Shown here: piece by piece, positions 4,202 to 37,592 of the stretch | Numbering within the stretch: position 1 is the first letter of the stretch | Layout: each line of letters opens with the position of its first letter | Assembly (NCBI GenBank): GCA_963575745.1 | Contig: CAUYUJ010000273.1 | Span: 62,001 to 116,007 of the forward strand | Direction of reading: 5' to 3' | Source: Prorocentrum cordatum | Lineage: Eukaryota | DNA length: 54,007 nucleotides | The notes under the pieces: generated by a model | Seen by the model: only the letters and a program-made list of their open reading frames with translations | Told to the model about the DNA's origin: nothing | Database searches by the model: none | Position numbers and translations under genes: made by a program

Positions 4202-4354
4202 TGACTACCTACCAGACCACCCCAACCCAACCCGAAAACCCGAATTTCGGGTTTGGGGGGTAAGGGTTCCACATGTTTCCCGACACCCCCCCACTGGAAA
4301 TCGAGGGTAAATCTGAGCCTTCGGGTTGGGTTGGGGTGGTTTGGTGGGTGGTGA
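4202..4354. mobile_element. MITE with ~35-bp TIRs, TG...GA termini, 5-bp TSD TTTAT
   Basis: Left TGACTACCTACCAGACCACCCCAACCCAACCCGAA is inverted at the right (TTCGGGTTGGGTTGGGGTGGTTTGGTGGGTGGTGA). TTTAT at 4197-4201 and 4355-4359. Related copy at 31471-31603. Confidence 0.85.
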
Positions 4355-4639
4355 TTTATGGCGTTGCTTTTTCTTCTAACCATGGGCCCCTTCATACTTA
4401 CGCGGCCTTCGGTTCTTGGCGGTCTCTCCAGCGGTCTGCCGCGCGGACGGATGGCCGCACCGGCAGAGGCATCCGGATGGAGCCAGAGGGGGGAGAAGGC
4501 TTCGGAGGACCGCACCACATCGGTGACGTCGGGATCGATGAAATCGGGTTCCAGATCGGACGTGGACCTTCGGCCCGCGGATCTAGAGTAAATGACCCTG
4601 GCACGACCCCAATGAGGGGAAACCTTCCTATTGCATGGG

Positions 4640-4752
4640 CGCAGTGCTCGACATTGCTTGGCACTGCTTGGCATTACTTGGCATTGCTCGGCATTGCTTG
4701 GCAGTGCTTGGTATTGCTTGGCATTGCTTGGCATTGCTTGGCACTGCTTGGA
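4640..4752. repeat. Tandem 10-mer (GCATTGCTTG)n
   Basis: About ten slightly diverged GCATTGCTTG/GCACTGCTTG units. Confidence 0.9.
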
Positions 4753-4929
4753 ATGAGCACAGGCAGAAGCCGCCGACCCAGTCGGCGTGTGGAAGAGGCT
4801 ATTCCGTTTGAATTGAGCAACGTTGTAGTTGAGTCGAAGGGAAGCCCCTTCCCTTTGATCCCTTCCCCGCCGGGGGGGGGTCCCGGCGGGATCCCGGGGC
4901 AGATACGACTCCCCCCCGGGCGATTCGGG

Positions 4930-5540
4930 GGCCCAGGAAAGCCCCAAGACGCAGCCAAAGTGCCCCAAGATGTCCCCAAGACGGTCTTCGAGGGCCCCGA
5001 ATCGCAAAAGTATCGGCCCAAGTCGCCAAAGTTACCACCAGACGGCTCAAAAAGTTTCCAAAACGCCCCAAGAGGCCTCCAAGAGGACTTCCAAGACGGC
5101 CCCAAGGGGCAGAAAACGTAGATTTCCCGCAGGTTTTTAAAACATTTCAGCATTCTCGCCTTGTCAGTTTCCCGACGCCCCAAGACAGGCCAAGAGGCCT
5201 CCAAGACCGCCCCAAGGTGGCTCAAGAGGCCTCCAAGAGAGCTCCACGACAACCCAAGAGGGCCCCAAGACCGCCCAAGAGGCCTCCCAGACAGCCGAGG
5301 AGACCCCCAAGACGGCTCCAAGAGGGAGCCCAGACGGGGGACCCGAACGGACATGTCGATCCCTCGGCCTGACAAGCTCTCAGGAAGCCCCCAGAGGCCC
5401 CTAAGAAGCCCCCCAAGAGGCCCCAAGAGGCCCCTAAGAGACCCCCACACGAAACCCCAAGAGGCCCCCACGAGGCTCCCAAGCGGCTCCCAAAAGCTTT
5501 CTAAGAGGCCCTCAAACTACCCCCAAGAGGCCCCCGAAGG
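4930..5540 (+). repeat. CCAAGA(G/C)GGCC-rich dispersed repeat family
   Basis: Recurring CCAAGAGGCC/CCAAGACGGC motifs. Related blocks on + at ~13690-13820, 44570-44830 and 49880-49980, and on - at ~10480-11050, 26380-26560 and 33330-33600. Confidence 0.85.
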
Positions 5541-5611
5541 CGCTCGTCGTCGTCGTCGTCATTCAGGGTCGGCGGCACCAGCCGCCAGGTCTTTGCAATA
5601 CGAGGCACTGG

Positions 5612-5885
5612 GGGCGGGGAACCCGGGGAACCCGACGAACCCCGGAACACGGGAAAAACGGGGAACCCAGGGAACCAGGGGAACCAAGAACGCAGGGAGC
5701 CCGGAAACTCGAGGAACCCGGGGAACCCAAGAAGCCCAGGGAACCCAAGGAACCCGGGGAACCCGGAAAACCCGGGGAGCCCGAGGCACCCGGGGAACCT
5801 CCGAGGAACGGGCAACAGAATGAGCGGAGGCACCGAGGGCGAGGACCCCGGGGAACCCGAGGAACCCAGGGAACCTCCGAGGAGC
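5612..5885. repeat. Tandem ~9-mer (GGGAACCC[G/A])n
   Basis: Many GGAACCC units with 9-bp periodicity. Confidence 0.85.
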
Positions 5886-8554
5886 GGGCAAAGTAGCCCC
5901 CGAGGCGCCAACCTTCAACCAAGTAAGAACCCTGTAGGCAAGACTGATTTCGAAGAGGACAAAACGCCAAAAGTTTGTGTTTATGCAGTTTTCTCGCTTT
6001 TCGGAAGCAAGAACCCCTTAGGCAACCCTACTAGGGGACAAGCTGCACGAAGGCGCAAACACGTCAGGGATAGGGGTCATGTTCTGCAGGTATCGAACCA
6101 AACCGTCCAGATGTATTGTCCCTAGTGCAAAGACTGCGACCTCCGTGAAGCAAAGTGCTTATCGTGTTATTATGGTTAAGGTTTTTCGTTTTCTGCGAAG
6201 GCGGGCTGCGCCTCTTCCACCCCTGCGCGCAGCACGGAGGGGTCCGAACACCTCCCCAGACGCCCTCCGCACGGCCCAGGGAGGAGTCGTGGCGCGGGGA
6301 TCCAAGAGCTCGTGCCTTCATTGTTCGCGACAACGCCCATGACCGCCCCCCCCTCCCTCCCGCGGTCACGCCACGATGCGCGGCGGCGCCGCATGGGAAA
6401 GAGCTAATTACGCTGGAACACTCCCAAACGGCGCCGGCGCCCATCGCGACGTGAACGGCCTTCTCCCCCCCCTGGTCACGCCGGTTATGGCTAGGCGATA
6501 AAAACTGTTTCTTGTCCGGGGGAGGCTCCGTGCGTAGAATCGTGACTTGGGGATCCAGCGCCCCACCCGCTCCCGCGAAGCTCCCCGGCGCAGGGAGGGG
6601 CAGGGGGTTCCCTCGCCCTCCCGGACGCCCCGCCTGCAGCGGACAGGCAGACCGGGGAGGCCGAGGTGTGGGTCTAGGTTTGGCCAGTCAAGCAGCAGTG
6701 AGTAGATTAGGAATGTCCTCAGAAACTGAGGGAAACCTTAATGTCGGCATCGAGATTTTGAAGACGATGCCGATCATAGGGACAGTGACAAGTTCGAGCT
6801 GGCACAGATCGCCCCCCCGGTGGGCGTCGCCCCGCTGGGCAAGCTCACGACAGCGGCCGCAGGAGCGCCTCTGGCAGCACCCCGGGAGCCCAGGTCGCAT
6901 CTGGCCCCCCCCGCAGGACGCCGCCCCGCTGGGCACCCCCGCAAAATCTCACGGAAGTGACAGATGCGCAGTTGGCAGTCTCCTCCTTTTCCTCCTCCTC
7001 CTCCTCCTCCTCCTCCTCCTCCTCCTCCTCCTTCCTCCTCCTTGGGCCCCCCGCAGGACCTCTCAGGGCCGGCAGAACCGGCCGTCGGGCCTTCACAGTC
7101 GACGGGCGCAGGCAGAGAGATGGGGAAAGCCCAGGGTTTGCTAGGGATTGGTTCCCCCCGAAACGCAACGCAACGCAACGCAAAAGTCTGATGCCGAGGC
7201 GCGTGGACACAATTCTACATGCAATGGCGGCAGACAGCGGACTGCCAAGCCACCCGGTCTGTCAGACCTGCTGGTACAAGAGCAGCACGTCGTTGCACTT
7301 GACCAGTCCATTCGTTCCTTGGTCCGCCAACGTGTCGCACCCTTCCAAAACCCTCCCGAAAACTTCCGAAAAACCTCCCAGAACCCCTCCCAGAGGGTTT
7401 CTGGAGGGCGTCGGCTGTTCTGCAAGGAAACCCATACCTGGCGAACCCTGGACCCTTCAAGGCCAGAAGGGCAAGGGGAGGATGGCAGGAGGGCAGGCCG
7501 GAGGGCGTGGCGGGGAAGGAGCGGGGGAAGGTGCAGGGCAAACAGCAGAGCAGGGAGGACTGCGCGTCTTTCGAGACCCTCCCATAACCCGAAGAGGCAG
7601 CGGATGTGGATACCTCTGGGCCTCCAGGGGCGGGGCCCACGGCAGGTCCTGGGAGAACGGTTCCCGAAGCGGTGGATCTGCATCCGCCACCGTGCCGCGA
7701 GGCACTGAGCGGAGTCTTCAGGAGCCTTCGAGCTCTCCGCATTGACTGCTGTATTGTTTTTGTTGTTGCCTTTGTTTAATACTTTTCTTTCGAAAATAGG
7801 AGAAAGAAGAGGCACGGCTCCGAAATGACGGTTTTCCTTGGGTTTGGCGCAGGGCTTCTGGGGAAGGTTGCGTGATTTACCCGAAGGCCAGAGAGACGGG
7901 TCAAGAGGGTCCTAAAATCCCACCGAGAACGCCCCTAACTTGGCATAGAATGTCCTAACGCTGTGGGCGAATTTTAGCAATCGACCTTCCGACACGCAAA
8001 GACTAGGCCCCCGAAAGCGCCTCAATATGGCCCAATAGACACCCAAGAGATTCGCCCGAGAGGGCCCAAAGACAGAGAGCCTCGAATTGACGGAGCCCCA
8101 TCCCCAAACCTCGTCACCCCGGATTCATGCTTGATTTCCCTCGGCCCCCCCTAGCGGCCCCGAAAAAAACCCGAGGCCTTGAACCACGATCCTTCAACCT
8201 CGCCGCCCCCCCCCATTCTTCTGGCAGACAAACTCAAAGACTGTCGGAGGTCCGCGCGGCTGGGCGCGCGAAGGCGCGCGAAGGCGCGGCGCCGCAACGG
8301 TGGGGGGAGAGGCCTGGACGCAGGTCCGAGAGGCCTGCTTCTGGAGCCCTGGAAACGTATGCTCACGCCGTCCTCTGTCAAGGGGCCAGGGAATGCACAA
8401 ACTGGTCTGCACGAGCCACAGGCATTCCCATGCTCCCCCCTTGCTTCCAAGATGCCCTCTTCCTTGCTGTGCCCCATCATGTCTCCGCATCCTCATGAAA
8501 AACAACTGCTGTTTAGGCTTCTTGGCGGGGCGCACCAGGGGGTAGAGAGAGGGC

Positions 8555-8660
8555 GGAGGGTTTCTTAGGAGGAGGCTGCTTCTTAGAAGGCGCCGGTCTT
8601 ACATCTATAGACAAGGCCCGCGCCTTCTAAGAAGCAGGGGTGCTTCTAAGAAGCCCTCCC
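8555..8660. repeat. Short foldback with CTTCTTAGAAG motifs; related diverged block at ~9080-9290
   Basis: GGAGGGTTTCTTAGGAGG..CTGCTTCTTAGAAGGCGC is inverted to GCGCCTTCTAAGAAGCAG..CTTCTAAGAAGCCCTCC. Outer ends and TSD are not resolved. Confidence 0.6.
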
Positions 8661-9647
8661 TTCACCCCCCTCCGCGCGTGGCTGATGTCTATTTGTCCCT
8701 CCCGGTCTTGTCCTGCGATCTGGGGGACCCCCCCCGTGCACAGAGGGGGCGGGACGCCCAGGACGCGCGAGGGGAGGCCGCCAGCCGGCTGCCGCGCTCA
8801 AGCGCTGCCTGCGAGGCCGTCACGCACGGCCGGTTTGTACACCCTCCGCCCGCGCGATGCTCCTCCCCCGTCACTGCTGCTTCGGCGGCGCGCACAACTC
8901 AGCGTCTCGACGGTGGGCGGAGGGGGGGGGAGGGGGGCGGTCTGGCTCGGGACCTCTGCTTGGTGCGACTGCTTGCAACGGTGCCTATGGAGCCCCCCCC
9001 TGCCTGAAAGAGGCGCCAAAAGCAGCCAAAATCTACTCCACGGGGATGGGGTCCGAGGGCCCGCGCCGGTCGGCACGAGGTGGGAAGGCTTCTTCGGAGG
9101 CCGTTTCTTATCAAAGGCGGCGGCCCTACATTGCAGACCAGGGCCTCTTAGCAGGGCCTCCTCGGGGGTGCTCGCGTCGTCCAGCGGCGCGCAGAAGGGG
9201 AGAGGGGGAGAGGGAAAGGCTCCTTAGAAGGAGGTTCCTTCGTGCGCCTTCTAGGAAGCAGAGGTGCTTCTACGAAGCCTTCCCCCTCCCCCAGACCCAC
9301 CTCGGCGCGTCGGCTGGCCTCGCAAGTGGGGTCCGAATCGATGGGTTCGGAGGGTCGCACCGCGTCGCCTGCGCACCGTACATCCGCCGCCGCGCCTGCA
9401 GCGGCAGGCGTGCTCGCTTGCTGCGAAGCAGTAGCTGGGCCCCCCCCGACGCGTCGGGGCCCCAAGATGCGTTCAGCTCTCCGACTGGGTCCCCGCGTTG
9501 TTTGGGGGGCTCCCAGGCAGAACATGCGCCGAAATACAAGGCTGGGCCGGGGGGGGGGACGTTCACACCCCTGGGCACCCGCCCAGCCCCACGTCAAGGC
9601 CCCCGCCCGAGCGCGGTGGCAGAATCGCGCGGCAGCGCCACTGGAAA

Positions 9648-10021
9648 CATATATATATATATATATATACACATACATACATACATATATATACATAGAC
9701 ACATACACATATACAAATACATATGCATATACATATATATACATATATATATATATACATATGCATGTATACATACATATACATACATACATACATACAT
9801 ACGTACGTACGTACGTACGTACGTACATACATACATACATACATACATACATACATACATACATACATGCATGCATGCATGCATGCATGCATGCATGCAT
9901 GCATGCATGCATGCATACATACATACATACATACATACATACATACATACATACATACATACATACATACATACATACATACATACATACATACATACAT
10001 ACATACATACATACACACACA
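9648..10021. repeat. Compound (TA)n/(CATA)n/(CGTA)n/(CATG)n microsatellite
   Basis: Directly visible. Confidence 0.98.
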
Positions 10022-10050
10022 CTAGAACCACGCGCGCGCTACGCGCGCTT
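10022..10050 (-). mobile_element. Helitron 3' terminus (hairpin + CTAG)
   Basis: Minus strand AAGCGCGCG-TAG-CGCGCGCGTGGTTCTAG|T: a GC hairpin a few bases before CTAG, followed by T. Nearly the same sequence ends the element at 25042. The 5' end was not located. Confidence 0.7.
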
Positions 10051-11260: not shown

Positions 11261-11456
11261 TCGGGCCGGGCGAAAGGGGGGGGTAGCAAAGCGGGGGGTT
11301 GACAATCAGCTCACGTAGCTAACTTTCCCGGCGCCTCCCGGCGCCAGGAGGCGCCCATGTATGGAGGCATGGGCCCGGCGGCGGGGCCAGAACCGGCTGC
11401 ATGCAGCAGATGTCGTAACCCACCCGTTCCCTATCCCCCCCTTTCCCTCGGCCCGC
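11261..11456. mobile_element. MITE with ~45-bp imperfect TIRs (TCGGGCC...GGCCCGC), 5-bp TSD TCTTC
   Basis: Left end begins TCGGGCCGGGCGAAAGGGGG; reverse complement of the right end begins GCGGGCCGAGGGAAAGGGGG, and similarity continues to GGGTTGACAATC/GGGTTACGACATC. TCTTC at 11256-11260 and 11457-11461. Confidence 0.75.
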
Positions 11457-19079: not shown

Positions 19080-19320
19080 TTGGCACGATTCCGGATCGCC
19101 AATGCGGAATCACCAGGTCGACCCGCGACGTTGGAATCCCAAAAACAATATTTTGGCATGCTTCAGCATCTTCAAACAATTGTCGTCCAACGAGGCAATT
19201 TCTTCTGCGAAAATGGCCCGTTGGAAAAGGCCTATACATAAAAGGCATGTGGAGAGATGGTTTAGTGTAACTTCGATGACGTTGATGACTCTTGGGTTTA
19301 CACTGGCCCTCCTCCTCCCA
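19080..19320 (-). repeat. Dispersed repeat with a CAGTGTAAACCCAAGA end; second copy at ~47275-47500 (+)
   Basis: GGAGGAGGAGG(G/A)CCAGTGTAAACCCAAGA(G/T)TCATCAACG is shared, with patchy similarity over the next ~200 bp. Confidence 0.7.
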
Positions 19321-19690
19321 CCCTGATATCCCCCGCCATCCTTCCCCAGAAATTCCCCCGAACGTTTGCGCGACGGCCGGGGAAGCACATGGCCCGATAG
19401 GTCGGCGGAACTCTTGCCGCAACGATCGGCCACACGGGCCATTCCAAAAGGCAGGGGCCGCAGGCGTCTTCGATTATCAAACAATTGGCCTGGCGACATG
19501 CACATCCATACGCAGTCACGCGTAGCACAGGGCGCGCCCTCGTATATACACATGTGTATACACGTGTAAATGCAGACACACACACATATACATACGTATA
19601 CATACATACATACATACAAACATACATACATGGCAAAATACCTACATACACACATTCACACATAAATGCGTATATACACCTGAAACGGTT

Positions 19691-19730: not shown

Positions 19731-19972
19731 CAGCGGGACTGAAGGCCGATTTCTGCGCGTTGAGGTAGGCTGACAGCCGAGGAGTCGAACTTATTATATT
19801 TCCCGTAGGTTGATGAAAGCAAAGGAAAAGGTCGCGAGCCCTTTTTTTCCCATGCGCCACGCACGGGCAGCGCTGTGCCGGATACCAGTACCTGAGCCGA
19901 GACGTCGGCGGTCGATAAAGATATAATTGGAACACGAGCGGACTTCACACACACACACACACGCCGCCACGA
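19728..19972 (+). repeat. ~245-bp diverged direct repeat, copy 1 (copy 2 at 24103-24343)
   Basis: Both copies start TCGCA, share AGGTCGCGAGCC..CCCATGCGCC..ATACCAGTACCTGA..CGTCGGCGGT..GAGCGGACTTCACAC and end in a (CA)n run. Confidence 0.9.
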
Positions 19973-24074: not shown

Positions 24075-25619
24075 GCGGCAGAGTCGAAGACGAAGCGGGG
24101 TGTCGCAACGGAGAACGTGAAAGAATGTGATGGTAACCTGTGGAAGTAGGTTGGCGACCGAAGAGCCGAACCTACTATATTTCTCGCATGTCGAAGAAGG
24201 TTAGGGATAAGGTCGCGAGCCTTTTCCCCATGCGCCGCGGACGGGCGGCGCTGTACCTAATACCAGTACCTGAACCGAGGCGTCGGCGGTAGATAAGGAT
24301 ATAATGGTGATATGAGCGGACTTCACACACACACACACACACTGTGTGTGGGACACGATCCGCGTGAAGGGGGTGCCGAATAATCGGGGTGCAATCGCGC
24401 GAACCCGCCCAACCAGGCCGCAGGTGGAGCTGTTTGTAGGGCACCGACCCGTATGTGCCAAAATGGGCCAGAGGGCGCCATGCGAAGTTGCCCATTGGTG
24501 TCGTGGATGGAGCTCGCTCCAGAGCACGGTTCGCGTGAACAGTGTGCCGACATGGGCGGAGGGATGATTTGCAAACCTTGTCTCTAGGGCTATGGGTGGT
24601 ATGCCGAAAAAGGGGGGGCTATGCAAACCCTGAGGCGGGGGGCGGGATGCGAGCCTGGTCTCTGGGACCGTAAGCGAAACTCCCTGCAAAGCACGATGAG
24701 ACGTGTAGTGAATGGAGCGACGTTATGCGAAGCTTCCCTTTCTAAAAGCAGTTCCAGCGGGCCAGCACTATCCGCATGAGGGGTGTGGTGCTATGCAGTG
24801 GGGCCGCAGGTGAAGCTCCCTGTGGGGCACGATGCCTGTGAGGGGTGTGCCGAGATGGGCGGGGGGCCGTGAGTGGAGCTCCCTGCGGGCATGATCCGTG
24901 TGAAGTGTGTGCCGAAATGGGTAACAGGTGTGCCCACGTGGTGATCGTGGTGGAGTGGCGTGCGTATGCATCCACTGGTTGATGTGACGCTAGTTTTGCC
25001 TTTGACAGGACATAAGCGCACGCAAAGCGCGCGTGGTTCTAGGATACATACACATACGCATGCACATATACAGAACCAGGTGTGAGTATCCCTCTCTGAC
25101 GCCGCCCGTGGTGGCCGCTCCCCTCTTCTTGGCGGCCCAGGGTAGGAGTGGCGGGTTCGGGCGGAGGCGTGCCGGAAGGCATGCTGGCTGCAAGGCTCCT
25201 GCTCAAGGCAAAGCGTCCAATCAATCGATGTGCGGTGCCACTAGATGGAACGGCTTGTGCTGTCACATCGAATGTCATATTTACGCTGGCCCCGCAACAG
25301 GGGGCGCCGAGGGGCGTATAGCGCGAGGCCACGAGACCACGAGAGGAGCACGCGGGGAGGGGGAGGGCGACAGAAGAGGGGGGCGAAAGAGGATGGAGAA
25401 AGAAAGAAAAGACGTAGAAGAAGGGAAGGAAGGAGGAAGGGATGGAGGGAACAGACGGGGAGGAGGAAGAAAGAGAGGAGGACGAGGAGGGGAACGGGTG
25501 GAGGCAGGAGGCAGGAGAAAGGGCAGAGGAAGGGAGGAGGGAGACGCGGGCGGAATGATTGATTGGGAGGCATGTGTGGTGCTGCTCTTGCTCTTCGTCT
25601 ACCACTCCACCACCTCATC

Positions 25620-25749
25620 GTGATGATGTTCATCATCATCAGCAGCAGCATCATCAGCAGCATCATAACCATCAGCATCACCCTATTCATCATCGGCAGC
25701 ATCATCAGCATCACCAGCAGCATCATCATCATCAGCATCATCACCACCC

Positions 25750-25826
<77 letters not shown>

Positions 25827-26280
25827 GCATCAGCATCAGCATCAGCATCATCATCATCATCATCACCATCACCATCATCATCAGCATCACCATAAGCATC
25901 ATCATCATCGGCATCGGCATCATCAGCATCAGCATCAGCATCATAATCATAAACATCAGCAGCATCATCAGCATCAGCATCATCGACATCAACATCAGCA
26001 TCATCATAATCATCATAAGCATCAGCAGCATCATCAACGTTATGACAGACATCGTCATCATCAACATCAACATCAGCATCATCATCAGCATCATCATCAC
26101 CAGCAGCAGCAACTGCATCAGCATCACTATCAGCATCAGCATCAGCATCATCATCAGCATCAGCATCATCATCGTCATTATCATCATCACCATCAGCATC
26201 AGCATCAGCATCAGCAGCAGCATCAGCAGCAGCATCAGCATCACCTTCATCTTCAGCATCATCAGCATCATCATCATCCA
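25620..26280. repeat. (CAT)n/(CAG)n microsatellite
   Basis: Directly visible. Confidence 0.98.
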
Positions 26281-27040
26281 CGGTGACGCTCTCGGGTTGT
26301 CTGGGGCCCGCTGGGCCAGTGTTGATGTACCCTCGGGGGCAAACTGTTGCGCATTGCAAGCGTGGCGTGGGCATATTGAAACGTCGTGGGCCCTCTTGGG
26401 CTCTCGTGGGGCCCTCTGGGAGCCTCTTTGGGAAATGTCGAGGCACGTGTGGGCCATCTTGAGGCCGTCTTGAGCCGTCCCAGGCCCGTATTGGGCCCGT
26501 CTGGAGGCGACGGCCCCCTTGGGGCAGCCCTGGACATCTTGGGGCCCTCTTCGGGCCCGGCGGTCCAGGGATCCGCCTGGGATCACATTGTGGCCTTTCG
26601 GAGCCGTCCGCGGCTCACCTTGGAGCCTCGGCACCTGCTGAGCTCCCGCTAAGCCTGGTGAGCCGGGACATCTGCGGCGAGCACATGGGCCGTCTCGAGG
26701 GCTTGGGGAACCTCCCAGAAAAACCCAGGAGAGGCTCCCGCGAGGATCTGTGGATGGAGGGGGCCAGTGCCGTAGCCTGGGCGCCCATGGTGCAGAGCAG
26801 AGCAAAACAGAGCGGCCAATAGTCCGTCCAGCGGGACCGCTCCGTAGTGCGCTTCGCGCCCATGGTGGGAGGGATGATGCCATGAGCGGCCTGGGGCAGA
26901 GTTTATCGCAACAGCGGAACGTCTTGCAGAAGAACGAGGGCGAGGAGGGGAGAACGAGAGGAGCAGGAGAGGGAAGGGAGGTGGGAAAAGACGGGACGGA
27001 TGAAGAGAGGGGCGCTCACAGGAAAAGGCCCGTCCTTGTC

Positions 27041-28008
27041 CATTAAGAGCAGGGTTCGCTGTCCGCGCCGCCGCGGACTGTGTCCATTTGAAACACAAAA
27101 GGCCGCCTGTCCAACAGCGGCCTCTGTTGGTTCGGGACACCAATGTGTTGTTGCGCAATGTACGCATATTTCCGCACAAATTTCGGGCGTCCCACGTGAT
27201 GGGCTGTCCAGGTGTCGGTTGGCCGCGACCTGCTCCGACCTGCCCCCGCGCGTCCGGCTGCCCTGGGCTGCGAGGGCTCCCGGCTGGCCGAAGTCAGCCC
27301 CGTCCAGCCAGCATTGCGCTGCCGATCGCCATGGGACGAAGCGATGTCTGATCGATGGGTGGGTCCTACCGTCGTATCTTTAGGGGCCCACATGCGCTGG
27401 CATCGTCTCAGGCTCGCCACCTCCCACCAGCGCCTGCTGCGCCTTCGCGGCCCCTTCCCCCCGTAAAGGGTGTCGATCGTCCCGAGAGCGGGCGCGCGCG
27501 GGCGGGTCGGCGCAGGCCGCGGCCGACGGACACCCCGGCGGCCCACGACGAGAGCGGCCACGCGCAGCCTGTCGGGACGGGTCGCTGCCAAACCGAGCGT
27601 GCGCCAGCGCGGGGCAGGCCGCGGGCGGGGGGTGCCCGGCAGGGGCGGCCCGCGGCCGGCCGGGCCCGAGGGCGGGGGCCGCGCGCGGGGGGCCGGCCGA
27701 GGTCGGCCACGGCGCATGGGGCGGAGCCCGTGGCCGGGCGGGGCCGGCGAGGCCGGCCACGAACGACCCGGGTCGCGGGGCCGACCAGTCGGGGGCTCGT
27801 GCGGGCGCGGCGGGGCTTCCCTCCCGGGCGCGGCGCCCACAGCCAGGCGTCGCTGCGGACGCCCAGGGGGTACGGGAAAACAGGGGCGCGCGGCCCCACG
27901 GCAGAAGCCGCTGTCCCAGACCCACAGCGGCCGCTGTTGGGCGGGCGGCTCGTCGCCTGCTATGAACAACGTCCCCGGCGGCGAGGGCAGCGAATCTTGC
28001 TCAAAATG
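27041..28008. mobile_element. Foldback element with long (>=100 bp) diverged inverted repeats, possibly MULE-like
   Basis: Left CATTAAGAGCAGGGTTCGCTGTCCGCGCCGCCGCGGAC...GCCGCCTGTCCAACAGCGGCCTCTGTTGGTTCGGGACA. Reverse complement of right CATTTTGAGCAAGATTCGCTGCCCTCGCCGCCGGGGAC...GCCGCCCGCCCAACAGCGGCCGCTGTGGGTCTGGGACA. No TSD seen. Confidence 0.7.
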
Positions 28009-28019
28009 AGCGGCAACTG

Positions 28020-28290
28020 GTGATGATCATGATGATCATGATGATGATGGTCATGGTGACTTCGTACCTGGTGATGGTCATGATGATCATGATGATCATG
28101 ATGATCATCAGATGATGATGGTGATGATGGTGATGGTGATGGTGATGATGATGGTGATGGTGATGATGATGTTGATGGTGATGACGATGATGATGCTGAT
28201 GATGATGACAATGGTCAATCAATCAAACAATCAGTCAATCAATCAAACAACAAATCAATCAGTCGATCAATCAATTAATCAATCAAGTGC
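28020..28290. repeat. (GAT)n and (AATC)n microsatellites
   Basis: Directly visible. Confidence 0.95.
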
Positions 28291-29170
28291 CACATGGTCT
28301 CAGTTTTCACACTCCCAGCCCGCCGCTGCGTTCATTGCGTGAATGGCTCGCTGTTCTGAGACGTGGTCCCCATCAAAAGTAAAACTGACAGTTGCGCTTC
28401 TGGAGGCCAGGCTGCGGGCGCGGAAGGCCAACTGGCCTACTGGCGCCCAAAGCTGGGATGGCCTGTGGGCGGGGCCAGATGGCACCGCTCCGAGGGCAAC
28501 GACTGTTCAAGAGAGGCGAATTACGAGCCCCAGGTCAATTGACCCTGGACTCGGAGGCCAAAAAAACCTGCACCGCCCCGGATCGGGGCAGGCTCAGGCA
28601 TCTTTAGAAATCTAGACACGCTCAAGGAAACGCCTGTCTGGACACCTCCTCATCTTCCTGTCGGCGGTGCTGACCCGACACGGCGGCGGCTAGATCACCG
28701 ACGCGGCGGCTCCACAGTCACCTCCTCACGGCGCTGCATGAATTGATCGACCGCCTGGGTTGGTGCTTCACCCCTACGGACCAGCGCGGCCAGCCGCGTA
28801 CTCGTCGCTGCAGCGCGTGCGACGGCCAAATCTAATGTTATGTCGGGCGTGTCCTCATACAGGGGGACGACAAATTAAACATAGCCAAAAAAAACAAAAT
28901 GGTCAACAACAAGGTTTTATCCGAGAACTCCGCGCGGACCTCCGAATTTGTATGTTTACGTCATTGTTTGTTTCCCTCTCGTTGGCCTTGGTTTTCCGGC
29001 AGCGGCAGTGCCTCGCTTCCTCCCCCAGGTCCTGCATGGGGATCTTCAACATGCGCTCCTTCGAATGCTCGATGATGACCTTCCAGTGCGCCTCCTCGAG
29101 GCCCGGCACCGCCACCGCAGCCTTCAGGAGAGCGATCCACACGTACAGGAATGGAGGCCCCAGAGCTGTG

Positions 29171-29333
29171 TGAAGGGGAACTGGGACACACGAATAAATA
29201 CACACAAATAAACATATGCCCCATATTTTCCCATATTTTCTGGGTTTTTTGTCTTCCCCTCCACTTCCCATACTTTCCTATATTTTCTGGGAGTCGACGA
29301 TTAATTGTGTCTGTGTGTTTCTTTCCCTCCTGA
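29171..29333 (+). mobile_element. ~160-bp MITE family, copy 1 (11-bp TSD CCAGAGCTGTG)
   Basis: TGAAGGGG..GGGACACAC..CCCATATTTT..TTAATTGTGTCTGTGTGTTTCTTTCCCTCCTGA. Duplication at 29160-29170 and 29334-29344. Removing the element and one TSD copy restores the host frame GEAATALGPPF. Confidence 0.92.
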
Positions 29334-29490
29334 CCAGAGCTGTGGCCGCTTCCCCCTTCGCCCCTGGGCTCTCCGACTGCTTGTTCTCCTGCGCCTGCTC
29401 GTGGTAGCCCCGGCACGCCTGCATCATGGCCTCGGATATGCCCGCAGCGACCGGGACCAGGTACGCGTAAAACGTCACGGCGCACACGTC

Positions 29491-29653
29491 TGAAGGGGCC
29501 CTGGGACACACAAACAAACAGACACAAATGACAGAATGTCCCATATTTTCCCGTATGTTCCGGATTTGTGTCTTCCCCCCCACTTCCCATATCTTCCCCT
29601 GTTCTCTGGGGAATCCACGATCCATCGTGTCTGTGTGTTTTTGTGTCTCCTGA
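29491..29653 (+). mobile_element. ~160-bp MITE family, copy 2 (no clear TSD)
   Basis: End-to-end similarity to copy 1. Confidence 0.9.
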
Positions 29654-30614
29654 GCTCAGCCGCGCTCGCCAGGCTCGGCCGGGCGAGGAGGAAAAGACTC
29701 ACTGCGTCGACAACTCCTTGCCCCCCCCCTTGCTGGCTGCCGCGTCCTCGGCCTCCTTCAGCGGCTCGGCCGCCTTGCCGTCGGCCGCCTCCTCCGCCCA
29801 GCGCCTGCAGCCCGTCTTCAGCGCCCAGGCGGGCTCGCCGAGCATGCCGACGTCGTCGGCTGGCCTGGCCGCGCCCCCCGGCACGGAGCAGAGGCGGAGG
29901 CGGCGCGCGTGCAATCACGTGCTGGTGCAATGCCTCCAGGCTTGAGCTCTCGATGCTCCAAAGAAGGCAGGTGAGCACGTTGGGTATGATGACGTCCCCG
30001 ATGAAACGGCTCCGCCCCCTGCAACCCCTCCCCGAAGCAAGCATGCGCACGACGTGTCGTTGAGCAGTGGCACGGCACGAGTAAGCTTGACTACAGCATG
30101 GACATGCGTTGGTAATGACGATCACCCGATAGACGTCACGAAAGTAATGGTGGTGAAGACGAAGGCAGTGTAATTGCGGGCATGTCGCGAAACAGCGACC
30201 GCACACCCTGTCCTCACAGTCGGGCGACCGGTGCTCTGCGGCCCGCTCCGCCCTCGGCAGCTCGCACCGCCATGTCTTCCTCCTCAGAGAGCCCTGCGGC
30301 AGCCGCTGGATCAGCGCCAACGCCAGGAGGAGGTACTCGAGCACGTAGCTCTAGAGTCGAAGAGCTGCCACGTCCGTGCGAAGGGAACGATCCTGCAGGT
30401 CTTCATCGCGAAACAACAACAGAAGACGTCCTGCCAGCGCCTGCGCAAAGTCGTACGAGTCGTCTTGGACCTCCAGCGCGACAATGTCGTCGGCTTATTG
30501 CCGTGCCCAGGGACACGCCGTTGGACGGACGCGCCCCCGATCGCCGAAGGTGTTCTCCGTCTCGAAAGGGAGCGACCCGAAAAGAGCCGCGCGCCGCTGC
30601 GTGTGGTTGTGCGG

Positions 30615-30674
30615 ATGATGGTGATGATGATGATGACGACGACGACGACGATGATGATGATGAGAATGGTAATA

Positions 30675-30727
<53 letters not shown>

Positions 30728-30746
30728 AATGATAATGATAATGATA

Positions 30747-30783
<37 letters not shown>

Positions 30784-31130
30784 CGATGATGAGGATTATG
30801 GATGTTTGATGTCGGATGTTTGATAATGGATGATGGATGGCGGTGATGATGGTGAGGACGATGGTGAGTAGGATGATGGTGATGATGATGATGAGATGGA
30901 TGTTGGATGTTGGATGATGGATGGAGGATGATGTATGGCGGCGATGATGGTGAGGATGATGGTGATGAGGATGAGGATGAGAAGGAGGAGGATGATGATA
31001 TTGAGGAGGAGGAGGAGGAAAAAGCAGAGGAGGAGGAGGAGGGGGAGGAGGGGAGGAGGAGGGGAGGAGGAGGGGGAGGGGAGGGGAGGAGGAGGGTGAT
31101 GGTGATGATGATGCTGATGCTGATGATGGG
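30615..31130. repeat. (GAT)n grading into (GGA)n low-complexity tract
   Basis: Directly visible. Confidence 0.95.
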
Positions 31131-31289: not shown

Positions 31290-31456
31290 TAGGGCGACGA
31301 GATCTATGCATATACACTGCTCCTGGCCAGGCCCATCCTGGGCCCAGGAGCGGTGTATATGCCTCCCTGGCCTGGCCAGGGAGGCGTATACACAGCTCTT
31401 GGGCCCAGGATTGGCCTGGCCAGGAGCAGTGGATATGTATAGATATCGTCGCCCGA
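31290..31456. mobile_element. 167-bp fully palindromic MITE, TA...GA termini, 5-bp TSD GTCCA
   Basis: Two 83-bp arms pair around a single T at 31373 with scattered mismatches. GTCCA at 31285-31289 and 31457-31461. Confidence 0.92.
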
Positions 31457-31470
31457 GTCCAGCCGCGTGA

Positions 31471-31603
31471 TGACCACCCACCGAGCCACCCCAGCCCAAC
31501 CCGAAGACCCGAGTGTGACCCGAACTTCGAACTTCGGGTTGGGGGGGGGTACGGGTTGCATGGAGGCCTTCAGGCTGGGTTGGGGTGGTTTGGTGGGTGG
31601 TGA
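31471..31603. mobile_element. MITE of the 4202-4354 family
   Basis: TGACCACCCACCGAGCCACCCCAGCCCAACCCGAAG...GGGTTGGGGTGGTTTGGTGGGTGGTGA. Flanks CGTGA and TGTCA match at 3/5. Confidence 0.8.
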
Positions 31604-31620
31604 TGTCAGCCCAGGTGTTA

Positions 31621-31774
31621 GGTCGGGCGTGTCCACCTACAGGCGGATCCAAGACGAAGAATAAAAAATAGTCACATGATACCCAAGTAATAATCACAAA
31701 GGAGCGGAAAAATCGTCCCCAGGCTATCTTTTATTACTATGTTTGACTCCTCCTGTAGAGGGACAGGCCCGACT
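31621..31774. mobile_element. PIF/Harbinger-like MITE (TIR GGTCGGGCGTGTCC[T]CCTACAGG, TNA flanks)
   Basis: TIR pair with TTA/TAA flanks. Other copies at 34343-34500, 49991-50146 and 50247-50422 (TCA/TCA), and single left ends at 28841 and 52559. Confidence 0.75.
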
Positions 31775-31799
31775 TAACCCAAGTGCCAGCTATGCCTGC

Positions 31800-31985
31800 C
31801 GTCCAGCAGGAGCTCGGCCACAAGAGACCTCCCACAAGAAGCCCAACCCTGAGACCCCAGGAGGTCCACTGCGTTTTGGTGAGGGAGCGTCACGCTTTCC
31901 CATCACAAAACCATCGAAGCCCAAGACACCCAGGGGACCCTGGTGGCAAGCAGGGTGTCTCTGCATGGGTCTCCCCTGCATAGTC
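31800..31985 (+). repeat. Dispersed repeat; second copy at ~48805-48990
   Basis: Shared CAACCCTGAGACCC..TTTTGGTG..AACCATCGAA..CCCAGGG..CCCTGG.GGCAAGCAGGGTG..GCATGGG. Confidence 0.8.
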
Positions 31986-33652
31986 AGCCCGTGTAAGCCC
32001 GAATGCTGGCCATGCCTCCTGTGCCAGGGTGATTCAGAGGCTCTCGAACGACAGGAGTCTGGGACGCCAATCCAGCGCTTCGCTCGAGAGTCCCCGTGAT
32101 CTGGTTCCGATGTCCTCGGGACCAAATCGGGACGGGCCAGCCGGCACCGATTCCGAGCCGATGTCCATCGGATGGGCATGCGTCGTAGGGGGGTGGGGGA
32201 CGGCGGGCCGTTGAGAGCGGGAGGTCCTCGGCCGTCCGCGCAACCACGCACGGTCAACCCGTACACTGTAAGGACGCGCGATGAGGATGCAAAGGGCCTT
32301 GGAAGGCCATGTCGACACTCTGCGAGCGGGGCGCGGCCGGCGAAGACTGTCGAGGATGGGCCGAAGAGGAGGCTGCGGGGTAGCCTGGGAAACTCGCTCA
32401 TCCTCAAGATGCGGGCTGGCTGTACAGCACAAATTCAATCCTGCCGCTGCCTTCGCACGGCCCCTCAGTGCGCTGCGCTATCGGCGCCTGGGCCCCCTGT
32501 TGTCGGGCGCAAGGGCCCCATGGTGTGCCAAGCTGCGTGCTGTGATGTGCCGAACCGAGCAGGGCAGAACGCACGTCGTGAGACACAGCGCGGCCCGAAC
32601 CAGAAAATATGCTCCGACGTGCGACCTCGGAGAGATATCGAGTGGCACACGCGCCGGGGAGGGGGGGCAACATGTGACACGCTCCCTCGAGGGCAGTACG
32701 TGCTCGCCCGGATTGAACACGTGCCCTGCGCGCTCAACAAAAACACTGGATCTGGCCGAGTCGCGCCACGTGCTGACTGTATGACGCAGAGCAGAGCAGA
32801 GAATGATGAGGCATGTCATAGCACACAGCGTGGCCTGGGGGAACCAGATCACGACACAGCAGGGAGGCACACGTCTCAGCACGGCATCTCAGATCACAGC
32901 AGATCGCATCATAAAACACAAGGTGGCACATAGCATAGCGAGGCGTCACGAGTTTCCACAGGACAGTGCCAGACATCCTACACAAAGCACTGGTTCCTGT
33001 GACTAGAAATGCTCAAATACTGCGACATCCAACTGCTTTGCTTCAGTATCTGGCCTCAGTCGTCAACTGATTGCCTCTCTGATCCTGGCTGCGCTGGGCC
33101 ATTATATGCTATGCACAACTATGCAGTGCTGAGCCATGGCATGCATCTGAATGCCACGTAATGATTGTATGCCTTGATATGGTGGGCGGTGCTGTGCTAT
33201 ACACTGCTACGCTATACGACGTGTCGCAGCAGGCTGTATTGCGTTGTGCCTGTATGATCCAGCAACAAGAATATTCATTGATGGGGTCGCGCCAGATTCT
33301 TTAAAAGGCCTTCTGGTCCATCCCACCAACGTGCCTGGGTCGTGGATCAGAGAAGTCTTGCAGGGGGTCTCTTGGGGAATCTCTCGGAAGCCTCTTGGGA
33401 GACTTTCGTAGCCGTCCTGCGCACTCTTGACCCGTCTGTCGAAACGTTTCGGGGCCCTTTGGGGCCTCTTCTGGATCGCTCTTCTGGACCATCTGTGCGC
33501 CGTCTTGAGCCGTCTTGAGCCGCCACTGAACCGTGTCTGGAGTTACTTGAGCCTTCTTGGGCAGCCCCGAAGCTCTCTGAAGCCATCTTCAAGCTATATT
33601 GAGCCGAGAAGCCGAATAGGCCAAATCGTCAGGAACAACAAACGGGGCTTTG

Positions 33653-33821
33653 GGAAGGGGCCCTGGGACACACAAATAAATACACACAAATAACAGGATT
33701 CCCCATATTTCCTCATACTTTCGGGTTTTCTGTCTTCCCCCCCCCCACACTTCCCTGATTTTTCGCATGTTTTCCTGGGAATCGAGGATTCATTGTGCCT
33801 GTGTGGTTTTTCCCTTCCTGA
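33653..33821 (+). mobile_element. ~160-bp MITE family, copy 3 (diverged, no TSD)
   Basis: End-to-end similarity to copy 1. Confidence 0.88.
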
Positions 33822-33977
33822 AAGACACCGGCCAGGCGGGAGCACAGCAGTACAGCAAGCAGCGCGCGGGGCTCGCAACGGAGCCGAGATCCCCCGCCAA
33901 AAGGATGGCAGCGCGTCCAAGACATCTCAACGCACCGCAAGCATGATGGGAAGCACAGGGACATGCTGATACTATAT

Positions 33978-34140
33978 TGAAGGGGCCCTGGGACACACAA
34001 ATAAATACACACATAAAAAAAACATCCCCATATTTTCCTATATTTTCTGGGTTTTTGTCTTCCCCCCCACTTCCCATATTTTCCCATATTTCCTGGGGAA
34101 TATACGATTAATTGTGTCTGTGTGTTTCTGTCCCTCCTGA
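33978..34140 (+). mobile_element. ~160-bp MITE family, copy 4 (TSD TATAT)
   Basis: TATAT at 33973-33977 and 34141-34145. The host repeat has an uninterrupted paralog at ~52212-52400. Confidence 0.92.
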
Positions 34141-34342
34141 TATATGTCCTCCTCGGAGGCGCGCGTCCGACCCGAACATGTAGTATACCCATCTTGTAGT
34201 ACATCGTTTCCCGAGCGGTGTGGCCAGAAAGCGCCCGCCACGACGCATATAATATCAGATTTCTCGGTGCGCGCGTCGCCCCTGGGGGGGGGGGGGGCGA
34301 CGCACATATCGTAAAGTATATGTTGGGGGGACGCCGACATGA

Positions 34343-34500
34343 GGCCGGGCGTGTCCTCCTACAGGCGGAGCTTGGATAGAAAATCAAACATTGACAACAA
34401 ATACTCGAAACATGCTCAAGCATGGTTTTAAAACAAATCGTGCCCAGACAATTGTTTGACTAGTTTTGGAGATTCCCCCTGTAGAGGGACACGCCCGACC
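34343..34500. mobile_element. PIF/Harbinger-like MITE copy
   Basis: GGCCGGGCGTGTCCTCCTACAGG...CCTGTAGAGGGACACGCCCGACC with TGA/TAA flanks. Confidence 0.75.
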
Positions 34501-34917
34501 TAATGCAAGCATGTGATTGCACTGCGCTGCAGAAAATCCTCCCGATCCCTGCCCGGGGCGTGCGAGCCGAAGGCCGTCGCCTACAGTCAGGCACTGGGAC
34601 TGGCGGGGCTGGCGGGGCCGGGAAATCTGCGCGGTGGAATGTTCCCCCGAGCTCCTCCGCCCTCCCACGACACCGGAGGGCGACGGGGAAGGAGGGCGGA
34701 GGGAGGGCGCAGGAGCGAGGGAGCCGCGAGGACGACGGGAAGGAAGGACGAGGAGAGGAGGGAAGTTTTGGGAGGGAGGTGGAGACACGTGGCCAGGCAC
34801 TGTTGTTTGTGGAGGGGCGAGGAGGGAGGGGAGGCGAGGGGCGAGCCGAGAGAGAGGCAAGGGGGCAGAGAGCACGGAATGGAGGGTTTGCGGAGGGGGG
34901 AGGGGGAGGTGGGCAAG

Positions 34918-35069
34918 TCTGGAGGCAGGGAGGGAGTATGGCATAAAAGGGGTGTGGTGCTATTCTAAGTAACGGGGACTCCGGCGGTGTTGCTTATCGT
35001 AGACAACATCGCCATCTCCACGATTGGCACCATGCCCCTTTATGCCACACACCCCTTCCGACCTCCAGA
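34918..35069. mobile_element. MITE with ~48-bp TIRs, TC...GA termini, 5-bp TSD GCAAG
   Basis: Left TCTGGAGGCAGGGAGGGAGTATGGCATAAAAGGGGTGTGGTGC. Reverse complement of right TCTGGAGGTCGGAAGGGGTGTGTGGCATAAAGGGGCATGGTGC. GCAAG at 34913-34917 and 35070-35074. Confidence 0.9.
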
Positions 35070-36018
35070 GCAAGGGGGAAGCAGGGAGGGGGATTTGGCT
35101 GGTGCGGAAAGGGGACGGGGAAGGGGTGGGAATGGCGAAAGCATGGATGACGGTGGAGGAGGGGGGGGCGACGGGGGAGCATTACAGGGAGAAGGGAGAG
35201 AGGGAGGAGAGGGAGAGGGAGCTCTGCAAGGAGAGAGGAAAGAGGAGTGAAGGAGCGAGGGGAGACGTGACCGAGGAAGGAGAGAAAGAGAGAAAAGAGC
35301 AGGCAGGGATGGAGGGCAGGAGGGAGACAGAGAGCTAGGGGACGGAGGCAAGTTTGGTTGGGCGAGCGCCGGGGACATGGTCACGCCAGGACGCTCGCAA
35401 CAGATCCTCGGAGAGCCTCTGCACAACAGCAGCTGCAGCACACCGGAAAATCCCAAGCGGGTGCTGCACTCCACTGCTCGGGGAGGCGCATGCCACACTC
35501 TGGCGGTAGGCCGCTGCGGAGGCGCGGCACAACACTGGCCCCAGCACTGGTGGATGAGCCACCAGGCTTGCGCAGGGACCGACCGTACCGGCAGTCCTGT
35601 AGTCCTACCACGACATGTTCTCAGAACCCAGAAATGTGCTGAGAACAAACACCATGTTCTTAGAACATGCGCCCGCTGTGTTCAAACAAGACAGTCTCGG
35701 CCAGAAATGGACGTTTCCCCAAAGCTTGACAGGCGAACAAGCGTCGGCAAGGAGCTGGGAGTTCCCTGAGCCAGAGAGTACCCTCAAATTCGTCACTACG
35801 CAGCGCCGCGAAGCACGTCCACATCGCGCGCGGACTGCGCACGAGGGGCTCCAGGGTTCGCGATCACAGCGTCAGGCCCCCTGGCGGATCGCTTCTCTCG
35901 CGCCCCCGGGCGCCGACCGGGGAACCTCCAAGACTTCACTGCCAGTCGCTTCGAAATGGCGGCGGCGCAGCATGCATTCAAATCGGCTGCCAATCATCTT
36001 GACAAAGTGGCCCACTAC

Positions 36019-36180
36019 TGAAGGGAAACTGGGACACACAAATAAATACACACAAATAAAAAGATTCCCCATATTTTCCTATATTTTCTGGGTTTTTGTC
36101 TTCCCCACCACTTCCCATATTTTCCTATATTTTCTGGGAAATCGACGATTAATTGTGTCTGTGTTTTTTTTCCCTCCTGA
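36019..36180 (+). mobile_element. ~160-bp MITE family, copy 5 (TSD ACTAC)
   Basis: ACTAC at 36014-36018 and 36181-36185. Confidence 0.92.
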
Positions 36181-36341
36181 ACTACTTCCAGCCACTCCCT
36201 CCTGGTGACATGGGAGGGCAAGGCTCCGGGAAGGGCAGGCGGGCCTCCCCACTCTATATTCCGGACCAAACGCTCACCCGTTGGAGCGACCCCCGAGGAA
36301 CTCCGCGCAGCCGACGGAGGACTGTCTCCGTCGTACCACCT

Positions 36342-36547
36342 TCGGGGAGACGTAAGACCCGGGTACGGGGGACTCGGAAATCCCCGACGAGGTCGTCAAA
36401 AAAATGACGAGGCCGAGCCTGCATTTTGACGAGGCCTCCCGCTGCAGACATCCCACGAAACTCCTCCTCGTCAAAATCCGAGTCGCGGTCGTCAAAAAAC
36501 GATGGCGAACCCGAGTCCCGGCAAACCCGGGTCTTACGCTCCCCCGA
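36342..36547. mobile_element. MITE with ~35-bp TIRs, TC...GA termini, 5-bp TSD CACCT
   Basis: Left TCGGGGAGACGTAAGACCCGGGT..GGGACTCGG. Reverse complement of right TCGGGGGAGCGTAAGACCCGGGT..GGGACTCGG. CACCT at 36337-36341 and 36548-36552. Internal CGTCAAAA motifs in both orientations. Confidence 0.9.
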
Positions 36548-36831
36548 CACCTGCCACTTTCAGCGCACCAGCGCGCCCCTGAGGAATCCCAGAAACGCCG
36601 GCGGCCTTCCCAGCGAACTGATCGGCACGAGAGCTCGAGAAAGCTCAAGCTCGGCGACGCCCCACAGATCACGCGTCGAAGCCGTCGAATGGGCACTGGC
36701 CCAGGGCAGCTCCGGATCCCCCTCGCGAGAACCCAGGAGGTCCCAAGTCCAGACGCGGAGGCCCAGCACGAGGGAGCTCCGAGCAATCAACGACGCACTC
36801 CCCCTGAGGCCCCGACCCAAGGGCAAGCAAT

Positions 36832-36993
36832 TGAAGGGGCCCAGGGACACACAAATAAATGCACACAAATAAAAGAATCCCCCATATTTTGCCATATTTT
36901 CTGGGTTGCTGTCTTCCCCCCACTTCCCATATTTTCCCACATGTTCTGGGGAATCGACGATTAATTGTGTCTGTGTGTTTCTTTCCCTCCTGA
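36832..36993 (+). mobile_element. ~160-bp MITE family, copy 6 (TSD GCAAT)
   Basis: GCAAT at 36827-36831 and 36994-36998. Confidence 0.92.
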
Positions 36994-37401
36994 GCAATCA
37001 CAATAAGCAACAACGCCACCGCAAGCGTAGGTCGCTAGCACGATGGGCGCGAACCCTGGAGCTAGACTGGGCCTCCGCCTGCAAGGTCCTCACCAGGATG
37101 GCATCACGCACGAGCTCAGCATCAGTCGAGGCCTCATCGTTGAGCACCGCCGCCTGATTAACCACACCTCCCGAGTCTCTGGTCCAAGGTCCACTGCCCC
37201 CCCCCGAACCGCCGAGGCCACATCGGCCCCCTCTGACACGACCTCCCCGACAAAACTAACCCCAATCCTGTCGACCGCCACTCCGGGCCAGCAGGGGGGG
37301 GAACAGCAGCAGGCAGCGGAAGGGGGCAACGATTCCAGGACATGCTTCTCTCGCGCTGGGGATTACCAGATATCGCAGAACAATGCTGGGAACTCAGCTT
37401 G

Positions 37402-37592
37402 TGAGTATCGTTTATCCGATCCCCATCCCCAGCGGCGTGGCCTGGGCCCCACTGGCCGATTTGCCACCCCAGATGGGGCTATAGGTCGTCCCCTTCGGGT
37501 TCCGAGGGGTGTACTCCCCAGCTGGGGTGGTAATTTCGTGGGGGTCTCGAAGGGGATGGGGGAGGGGCTGGGGATCGGATAAAAGATACTGA
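37402..37592. mobile_element. MITE with ~28-bp TIRs, TG...GA termini (no TSD), at the 3' break of the LINE
   Basis: Left TGAGTATCGTTTATCCGATCCCCATCCCC. Reverse complement of right TCAGTATCTTTTATCCGATCCCCAGCCCC. Confidence 0.8.

Follow-up and report, generated by a model that had tools for sequence, protein, structure and literature searches.

A 54,007-base stretch of Prorocentrum cordatum DNA (contig CAUYUJ010000273.1 of assembly GCA_963575745.1, positions 62,001 to 116,007 of the forward strand; here called the window) carries several families of short elements with inverted ends, and the question that it raises is which enzyme moved them. An earlier model-made reading of the letters alone (the sequence-only reading) had listed eight elements between exact 5-bp direct repeats and had proposed that one transposase lineage, possibly undescribed, mobilizes them all. 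The elements are MITEs (miniature inverted-repeat transposable elements), and we tentatively attribute their movement to a transposase that belongs to the hAT superfamily or is closely related to it.

Elements with 5-bp target duplications

Eight copies from six families (F1 to F6) are flanked by exact 5-bp repeats. Every one of the eight that had been listed was confirmed, and in each the repeats immediately adjoin the inverted ends. The first base is T throughout and seven end in GA, while 11261-11456 ends in GC, as had been described. The copies are as follows, with the plus strand given where an orientation was assigned.

F1a, 4202..4354, plus strand: 153-bp MITE; ends TGACTACC... and ...GGTGGTGA; duplication TTTAT at 4197-4201 and 4355-4359
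F2, 11261..11456, no strand assigned: 196-bp MITE; ends TCGGGCCGGGCG... and ...CGGCCCGC; duplication TCTTC
F3, 31290..31456, no strand assigned: 167-bp near-perfect foldback; ends TAGGGCGACG... and ...CGTCGCCCGA; duplication GTCCA
F4, 34918..35069, no strand assigned: 152-bp MITE; ends TCTGGAGG... and ...CCTCCAGA; duplication GCAAG
F5, 36342..36547, no strand assigned: 206-bp MITE; ends TCGGGGAGACG... and ...CTCCCCCGA; duplication CACCT
F6a, 33978..34140, plus strand: 163 bp; ends TGAAGGGG... and ...CCTCCTGA; weak terminal inverted repeat (TIR); duplication TATAT; 94.5% identical to the family consensus
F6b, 36019..36180, plus strand: 162 bp; duplication ACTAC
F6c, 36832..36993, plus strand: 162 bp; duplication GCAAT

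Four further copies of F1 and F6, absent from the earlier list, are without a 5-bp repeat: F1b, F6e and F6f have none and F6d has 11 bp. They are given here together with a related element, F7.

F1b, 31471..31603, plus strand: second F1 copy, 133 bp; no 5-bp repeat (CGTGA versus TGTCA); nhmmer E 8e-35
F6d, 29171..29333, plus strand: 163 bp; exact 11-bp flanking repeat CCAGAGCTGTG in place of 5 bp; 93.8% identical to the consensus
F6e, 29491..29653, plus strand: older copy, 84.7% identical to the consensus; no flanking repeat
F6f, 33653..33821, plus strand: older copy, 83.4% identical to the consensus; first base G; no flanking repeat
F7, 37402..37592, no strand assigned: 191 bp; TGA at both ends on the plus strand; good TIR, no 5- or 8-bp repeat

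F7 was one of two intervals said to have the same ends without a clear duplication. It does have a good TIR (55 identities in 73 aligned columns), but its flanks match at only 1/5 and 3/8 positions, and its membership of the 5-bp group is unproven. The second interval, 41814-41903, lacks a terminal inverted repeat and does not count among elements of this kind.

The inverted ends differ in length and quality between families. TIRs of F1 to F5, F7 and F9 (a family introduced below) comprise 30-71 identities over 33-78 aligned columns, while that of F6 is weak. The shortest of those sized is that of F5, with about 23 nt ungapped; the TIR of F1 extends over 44 columns (36 identities in F1a), the gapped TIR of F4 over 65 columns (54 identities) and that of F3 over 78, with 163 nt of F3 being self-complementary at 91%. 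The TIRs had been called mostly G-rich, which is true of only three of the seven families. No similarity between families is found by blastn (word 9, E<=1e-3); the sequence-only reading had likewise described their internal sequences as unrelated.

The flanking repeats support the view that these elements are real insertions. Exact 5-bp repeats flank 8 of the 13 copies examined, with an 11-bp repeat at one copy and none at four. Since the chance of an exact 5-mer match is 0.0013 per copy, a count of 8/13 corresponds to P ~8e-21. A control that shifted the flanks by 1-10 bases gave four matches in 390 comparisons, three of which are attributed to the 11-bp repeat of F6d. We also carried out a census in which inverted-repeat pairs were collected before their flanks were compared (756 candidates of 80-600 bp with at least 15/20 ungapped matches, after masking of tandem repeats). 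It returned five pairs with exact 5-bp flanks versus 0-3 in five displaced controls, and four of the five pairs are F1, F2, F3 and F5; F4 and F6 fall below the ungapped threshold. The repeat of F2, TCTTC, is easier to obtain as a chance match because its flank is TCC/TCT-rich low-complexity DNA. With lengths of 133-206 bp, well under the limit of about 600 bp for MITEs, no coding capacity, TIRs, target duplications and several copies at unrelated sites (six of F6, four of F9 and two each of F1 and F10 in the window), the elements are MITEs and thus non-autonomous.

The terminal bases are shared beyond the initial T. Seven families contribute 14 ends, of which 13 have T at the first position (P ~7e-9). 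The second position varies, with C in 10 ends, G in three and A in one; the third is a purine (A or G) in 12, and G occupies the fourth in 11 and the fifth in 10. An A at position 13 (11/14) is suggestive only. Every family has a 3'-terminal A. Two end types can be distinguished, TCGGG in F2, F3, F5 and F10, and TGA/TCA in F1, F6 and F7, with F4 differing again. The 5-bp duplications are poor in G+C, with 15 of 40 bases versus 61% across the window (P 0.002), and a G immediately follows the duplication at six of the eight sites.

F6 has the most copies in the window and offers a view of element boundaries and age. In an alignment of its six copies, homology begins exactly at TGAAGG and runs through CCTGA, and the G+C content of the copies is 36-49%. 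The terminal TGA is constant in five of the six copies, which marks it as part of the element and not as a duplication. Identity to the consensus is about 94% in the four copies whose flanking repeats are intact and 83-85% in the two that lack them, a difference that fits decay of the duplications with age.

Families with similar ends and other flanks

Elements with T-N-R-G-G ends occur in this genome with 8-bp as well as with 5-bp duplications. F9, found by self-comparison of the window and profile searches, has nearly matching 8-bp flanks in three of its four full copies, and a further family, F10, has similar ends and no repeat.

F9a, 31618..31777, plus strand: ends TTAGGTCGGGCG... and ...CCCGACTTAA; 8-bp flanks CCCAGGTG and CCCAAGTG (7/8)
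F9b, 49988..50149, plus strand: 8-bp flanks GGCTACCC and GGCCACCC (7/8, read by eye from the printed flanks)
F9c, 34340..34503, plus strand: flanks match at 4/8
F9d, 50244..50425, plus strand: 8-bp flanks CACGACCG and CACGACCC (7/8)
F9 fragments, 28838-28890, 52556-52600 and 53699-53796, plus strand
F10a, 34153..34337, plus strand: ends TCGGAGG... and ...GACGCCGA; flanks without a repeat of 3, 5 or 8 bp
F10b, 52242..52420, plus strand: second F10 copy; no flanking repeat

The TIR of F9 is about 25-26 nt long and begins T[T/C/G]AGG[T/C]CGGGCG. Three of the four full copies have flanks matching at 7/8 positions (two computed, F9b by eye), and an offset control gave 3/672 matches, one of which is taken as the true F9b register. 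Reading the T-N-A at the F9 ends as a 3-bp duplication was dropped, as the 8 bases outside T-N-A match at 7/8 in three of the four copies. Likeness between the two groups of families is seen in F2, a 5-bp family, and F9c, of the 8-bp family, where 10 of the first 12 bases agree. F10 likewise resembles the 5-bp families in its TCGG...CCGA ends, although its two copies have no flanking repeat of any of these lengths.

The targets of the two groups differ. A manual count from the flanks gives 18/24 G+C for the F9 duplications, so that F9 targets are G+C-rich and those of the 5-bp families G+C-poor, which makes two enzymes likely. The 5-bp and 8-bp families probably use two related but distinct enzymes.

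Candidate transposases

No transposase is encoded in the window, a point on which the sequence-only reading was right. We compared 482 translations of open reading frames (ORFs) with Pfam, made up of 49 ORFs of at least 200 aa from the first start codon and 433 of the 518 stop-to-stop ORFs of at least 70 aa. No transposase, reverse transcriptase, integrase or other credible Pfam family was found among them, and the ORFs overlapping the elements matched no Pfam family. Of the remaining 85 stop-to-stop ORFs, 36-85 lay outside the scan, and these sit mostly in microsatellite tracts. Sub-cut-off matches to L37ae, DUF6594, Collagen, BSP_II, DAZAP2 and zf-CGNR were judged spurious; the L37ae match falls on a zinc-ribbon-like stretch and the DUF6594 match on a His/Ile low-complexity ORF.

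Our preferred reading, put forward tentatively, is that a DDE transposase from the hAT superfamily, or a close relative, moved the MITEs in trans with a 5-bp stagger like that of the hAT5 group. Such an enzyme, encoded elsewhere in the genome, would bind the inverted ends, cut at the terminal T...A of the element and insert it into a target cut with a 5-bp stagger, and repair of this stagger would leave the 5-bp duplication. hAT elements are defined by 8-bp duplications and YARNG ends (PMC3014272) and have TIRs of 5-27 bp (PMC3517528), and the superfamily also contains the groups hAT5, hAT6 and hAT7 with duplications of 5, 6 and 7 bp (PMC12730594). The earlier rule that hAT gives 8 bp is thus incomplete. 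The hAT transposase itself is marked by a BED-type zinc finger, an RNase-H-like DDE core that carries an insertion domain, and a hAT dimerization domain at the C-terminus. A hAT-like enzyme is favored over an unknown superfamily because F9, with the same T-N-R-G-G ends, carries the 8-bp duplications that are a hallmark of hAT, and the weight that we give to this reading comes from like ends occurring with both 8-bp and 5-bp duplications together with the hAT precedent for such variation. Duplication length and TIR length give a mixed picture. F9 has 8 bp (at 7/8 in three of four copies), and F1 to F6, with 5 bp, correspond only to the hAT5-type exception; the TIRs of F5 (about 23) and F9 (about 26) lie inside the hAT range, and F1, F3 and F4 have longer repeats.

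A number of observations count against a hAT-like enzyme. Several other superfamilies, namely P, Novosib, Zisupton, Merlin and MULE, also give 8-bp duplications, and F9 therefore need not be hAT. The YARNG motif is absent from nearly all ends: a full fit is found in 1/14 (TAGGG of F3), and by position Y is present in 13/14 at the first base, A in 1/14 at the second, where 10/14 have C, R in 12/14 at the third and G in 10/14 at the fifth. According to a legend in PMC1131882, hAT 5' ends invariably have G as their third base, a position held here by A in F1, F6 and F7 and by T in F4. The hAT5 group lies within an animal hAT lineage (PMC12730594), and nothing in the present data ties these elements to that clade. 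The 11-bp repeat on the young copy F6d is something that a fixed 5-bp stagger cannot explain, and the TIR of F6 is only weak. The opposite target G+C of F9 and the 5-bp families implies at least two enzymes. Finally, neither an autonomous partner nor a transposase protein was seen in the window.

Comparison with described systems shows both likeness and difference. The hAT5 group (Kapitonov and Jurka 2007, via PMC12730594) shares cut-and-paste movement with a 5-bp duplication, in a superfamily that otherwise gives 8 bp, but it lies in the animal lineage Blackjack and the ends described here depart from YARNG at position 2. The Mar/Vege elements of Drosophila willistoni are likewise short, non-coding and moved in trans, with short inverted ends, many copies and decayed duplications in older copies; Mar has 8-bp duplications and CAGRG ends, whereas 8 bp is seen here in F9 only (PMC3517528). 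Introner-like elements of dinoflagellates (bioRxiv 10.1101/2020.10.14.339549) and Amoebophrya (PMC7789003) resemble the present elements in comprising many unrelated short families with inverted ends, high copy number and an orientation bias, and they have direct repeats of 3-8 nt. Class 12 of the introner-like elements of Polarella glacialis has a 5-nt target duplication but starts with C (bioRxiv 10.1101/2020.10.14.339549), and the Amoebophrya introner elements, with direct repeats of 3-5 nt, have inverted repeats beginning TTA or TAT, unlike those found here (PMC7789003). The list of known 5-bp elements in the sequence-only reading was incomplete, since it had omitted hAT5, TDD-4/5 and the 5-nt introner-like class.

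Three alternatives were weighed. An undescribed superfamily, DDE or other, with a 5-bp stagger, 5'-T...A-3' ends and G+C-poor targets may mobilize the families, and we regard it as unlikely but as the strongest of the competing explanations. The ends fail YARNG, and none of the 5-bp groups whose ends were compared fits. Transib has a 5-bp duplication in common with these elements, but it inserts into G+C-rich targets and its ends consist of a conserved CACAATG heptamer followed 23 bp further in by a nonamer (PMC1131882), while here ends start with T, none begins CAC and the duplications contain 15/40 G+C. Ginger2/TDD elements have TGTNR ends (PMC2836005). A full-text literature search for MITEs with 5-bp target duplications returned papers on long terminal repeat (LTR) elements and TRIM elements (miniature terminal-repeat retrotransposons) only, and a search on algal MITEs with 5-bp target sites returned nothing. 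Against this stand the 8-bp duplications of F9, which join like ends to another length and so fit a known superfamily with variable stagger; moreover, end motifs of protist transposons are poorly catalogued, which makes a mismatch weak evidence, and no protein has been seen. Slightly less likely again is the more specific claim that six or more unrelated families, each about 150-200 bp long, reached very high copy numbers in this G+C-rich eukaryote through an undescribed lineage whose stagger is 5 bp, whose 5'-T...A-3' ends are obligatory and whose targets are poor in G+C. Of the earlier proposal of one possibly undescribed lineage, the real insertions, the shared ends and the missing window transposase stand, but the 8-bp flanks of F9 point to a hAT-like enzyme instead.

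Still more doubtful is the possibility that several unrelated transposases were involved and that the common duplication length and T...A ends arose in part by coincidence, with F1, F6 and F7 perhaps descending from a 3-bp T-N-A class such as PIF/Harbinger. The PIF/Harbinger duplication is 3-bp TWA. The two end types, with F4 standing apart, would suit separate enzymes; TGA is a direct and not an inverted repeat in all three TGA families, and F7 can be read as an element between 3-bp TGA repeats. However, T at 13 of 14 ends is hard to reconcile with coincidence, the constancy of TGA among F6 copies assigns it to the element, and a 3-bp reading fails for F2 to F5, where the 3-bp flanks match at 0-1/3 positions. 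An integrase-like (rve) DDE enzyme, as in Ginger2/TDD elements or LTR retrotransposons, with F6 as a possible solo LTR or TRIM-like LTR, appears the least probable of these explanations. In its favor, LTR elements usually duplicate 5 bp (PMC6839031), as do TDD-4/5, which share AT-rich targets and terminal T...A with the elements in the window (PMC2836005); F1, F6 and F7 each have one TG end, and all families keep the 3'-terminal A. In addition, Amoebophrya sp. A120 has TIR-flanked elements with integrase-like ORFs, which are reported to lack Ginger ends and duplications (PMC12130899). But only 3/14 ends have TG and none has TGT, seven of the eight listed elements finish in GA where CA would be expected, and TIRs of 23-78 nt are unlike LTR ends. 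Ginger TIRs are 50-180 bp long and occur on kilobase-length elements (PMC2836005), and GingerRoot has a 6-bp duplication and TA...TA ends (PMC6839031). The ORFs of the window contain neither reverse transcriptase nor integrase domains. An assignment of F6 to solo LTRs or TRIM was rejected on its TG...GA ends, where an LTR would have TG...CA, and on the separate duplications of F6a, F6b and F6c. Two F6 pairs, 29171/29491 and 33653/33978, have starts 320 and 325 bp apart with unrelated intervening stretches, and are not paired LTRs because F6a carries a duplication of its own and an outer duplication is missing from both pairs; a purine tract ahead of the second copy is also missing, and the F6 copies nowhere form an LTR-internal-LTR unit bounded by an outer duplication.

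Copy number, orientation and genomic setting

The genome seems to contain many copies of the element families. In one low-coverage DNA run (0.07 of the words), 14,084 contigs were placed over 12.3 kb of the window. Contigs match unique parts of the window without difference at a depth of 2-4, and they pile up on the elements, with summed contig depths, which do not equal copy number, of about 4,450 at 29022-29432, 10,600 at 31488-31898, 20,900 at 33954-34364, 10,900 at 36009-36419 and 9,100 at 36831-37241. We take these pile-ups as a sign of many genomic copies. A clean empty site is not found among the contig joints listed. Two further pile-ups lie on other repeats: a summed depth of up to about 23,700 at 35594 (35590-35680) marks a palindrome of about 60 bp, CATGTTCTCAGAAC...GTTCTTAGAACATG, and about 13,400 over 39708-40118 covers a 36-bp unit repeated at 39754 and 39889. 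Searches of other collections with element motifs gave only chance similarity. A metagenome scan with the F6 motif returned three loci of 40-48% G+C that match over 25-26 bases only; the F6 19-mer had no match in scans of prokaryote genomes and viruses; and the F9 end pattern had one Burkholderia match with no further similarity and no viral match.

All multi-copy families (F1, F6, F9 and F10, between 4202 and 52420) are co-oriented, with 10/10 informative comparisons in agreement (P ~0.001), and the three F9 fragments are also on the plus strand. On this strand A exceeds T in most 2-kb bins. Long stretches transcribed in one direction may account for both the co-orientation and the A excess. 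The size range of the family representatives is narrow (152-206 bp), and its combination with co-orientation is compatible with selection inside co-directional transcription units, where elements might be tolerated in one orientation only, as for introner-like elements, which we regard as a lead and not as a result. Two F6 copies lie in a stretch that can be read as protein on the minus strand. Long open frames are found everywhere in the window, with the best frame across a random point having a median of 256 codons, and the long frames that span sites restored by removal of an element are no longer than those at random positions, ranking between the 3rd and 82nd percentile from the top, which speaks neither for nor against use as introns. 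Canonical splice sites at F6d do not restore the frame, and scans of G+C at third codon positions (GC3) did not define exons in the window.

By appearance, the window looks like repeat-rich, gene-poor eukaryotic DNA; a single gap of 100 N interrupts it at 2836-2935. Scans of the window for tRNAs and Rfam families gave no match, and a dinoflagellate spliced-leader motif is absent from it. An Atlas search with one window ORF returned weak C2H2-like neighbors only and no taxon. The remaining repeats in the window are the following.

25600-28100 and 30590-30800: long CAT/ATG-type microsatellite arrays in inverted orientation, about 4.6 kb apart
40600-41300 and 48100-48700: long microsatellite tracts; the types among the tracts include a CATA/CATG array and a CAT array reading as poly-His and poly-Ile
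52660-53600: unit of about 80 bp arrayed in direct and then inverted copies (ccgcccgcatgc...caccgaag), forming a large imperfect palindrome
19759-19962 and 24140-24340: two-copy repeat family without clear inverted ends, terminating in a (CA)n run
31820-31981 and 48824-48989: two-copy repeat family without clear inverted ends
19081-19345 and 47243-47502 (inverted): two-copy repeat family without clear inverted ends

Identity within the last three families is 68-81%.

Duplication length and end motif are the two handles by which non-coding transposons are sorted into superfamilies. The window presents a compact case in which unrelated families pair the rare 5-bp length with ends of no catalogued 5-bp group, beside a family with similar ends and 8-bp duplications. 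The strict co-orientation and narrow size range of the elements make this genome worth testing for introns made by transposons. If the autonomous partner of the 5-bp families is a hAT relative, 5-bp variants of hAT would extend beyond the animal lineage that holds hAT5; if it is not, one superfamily would be added to those described.

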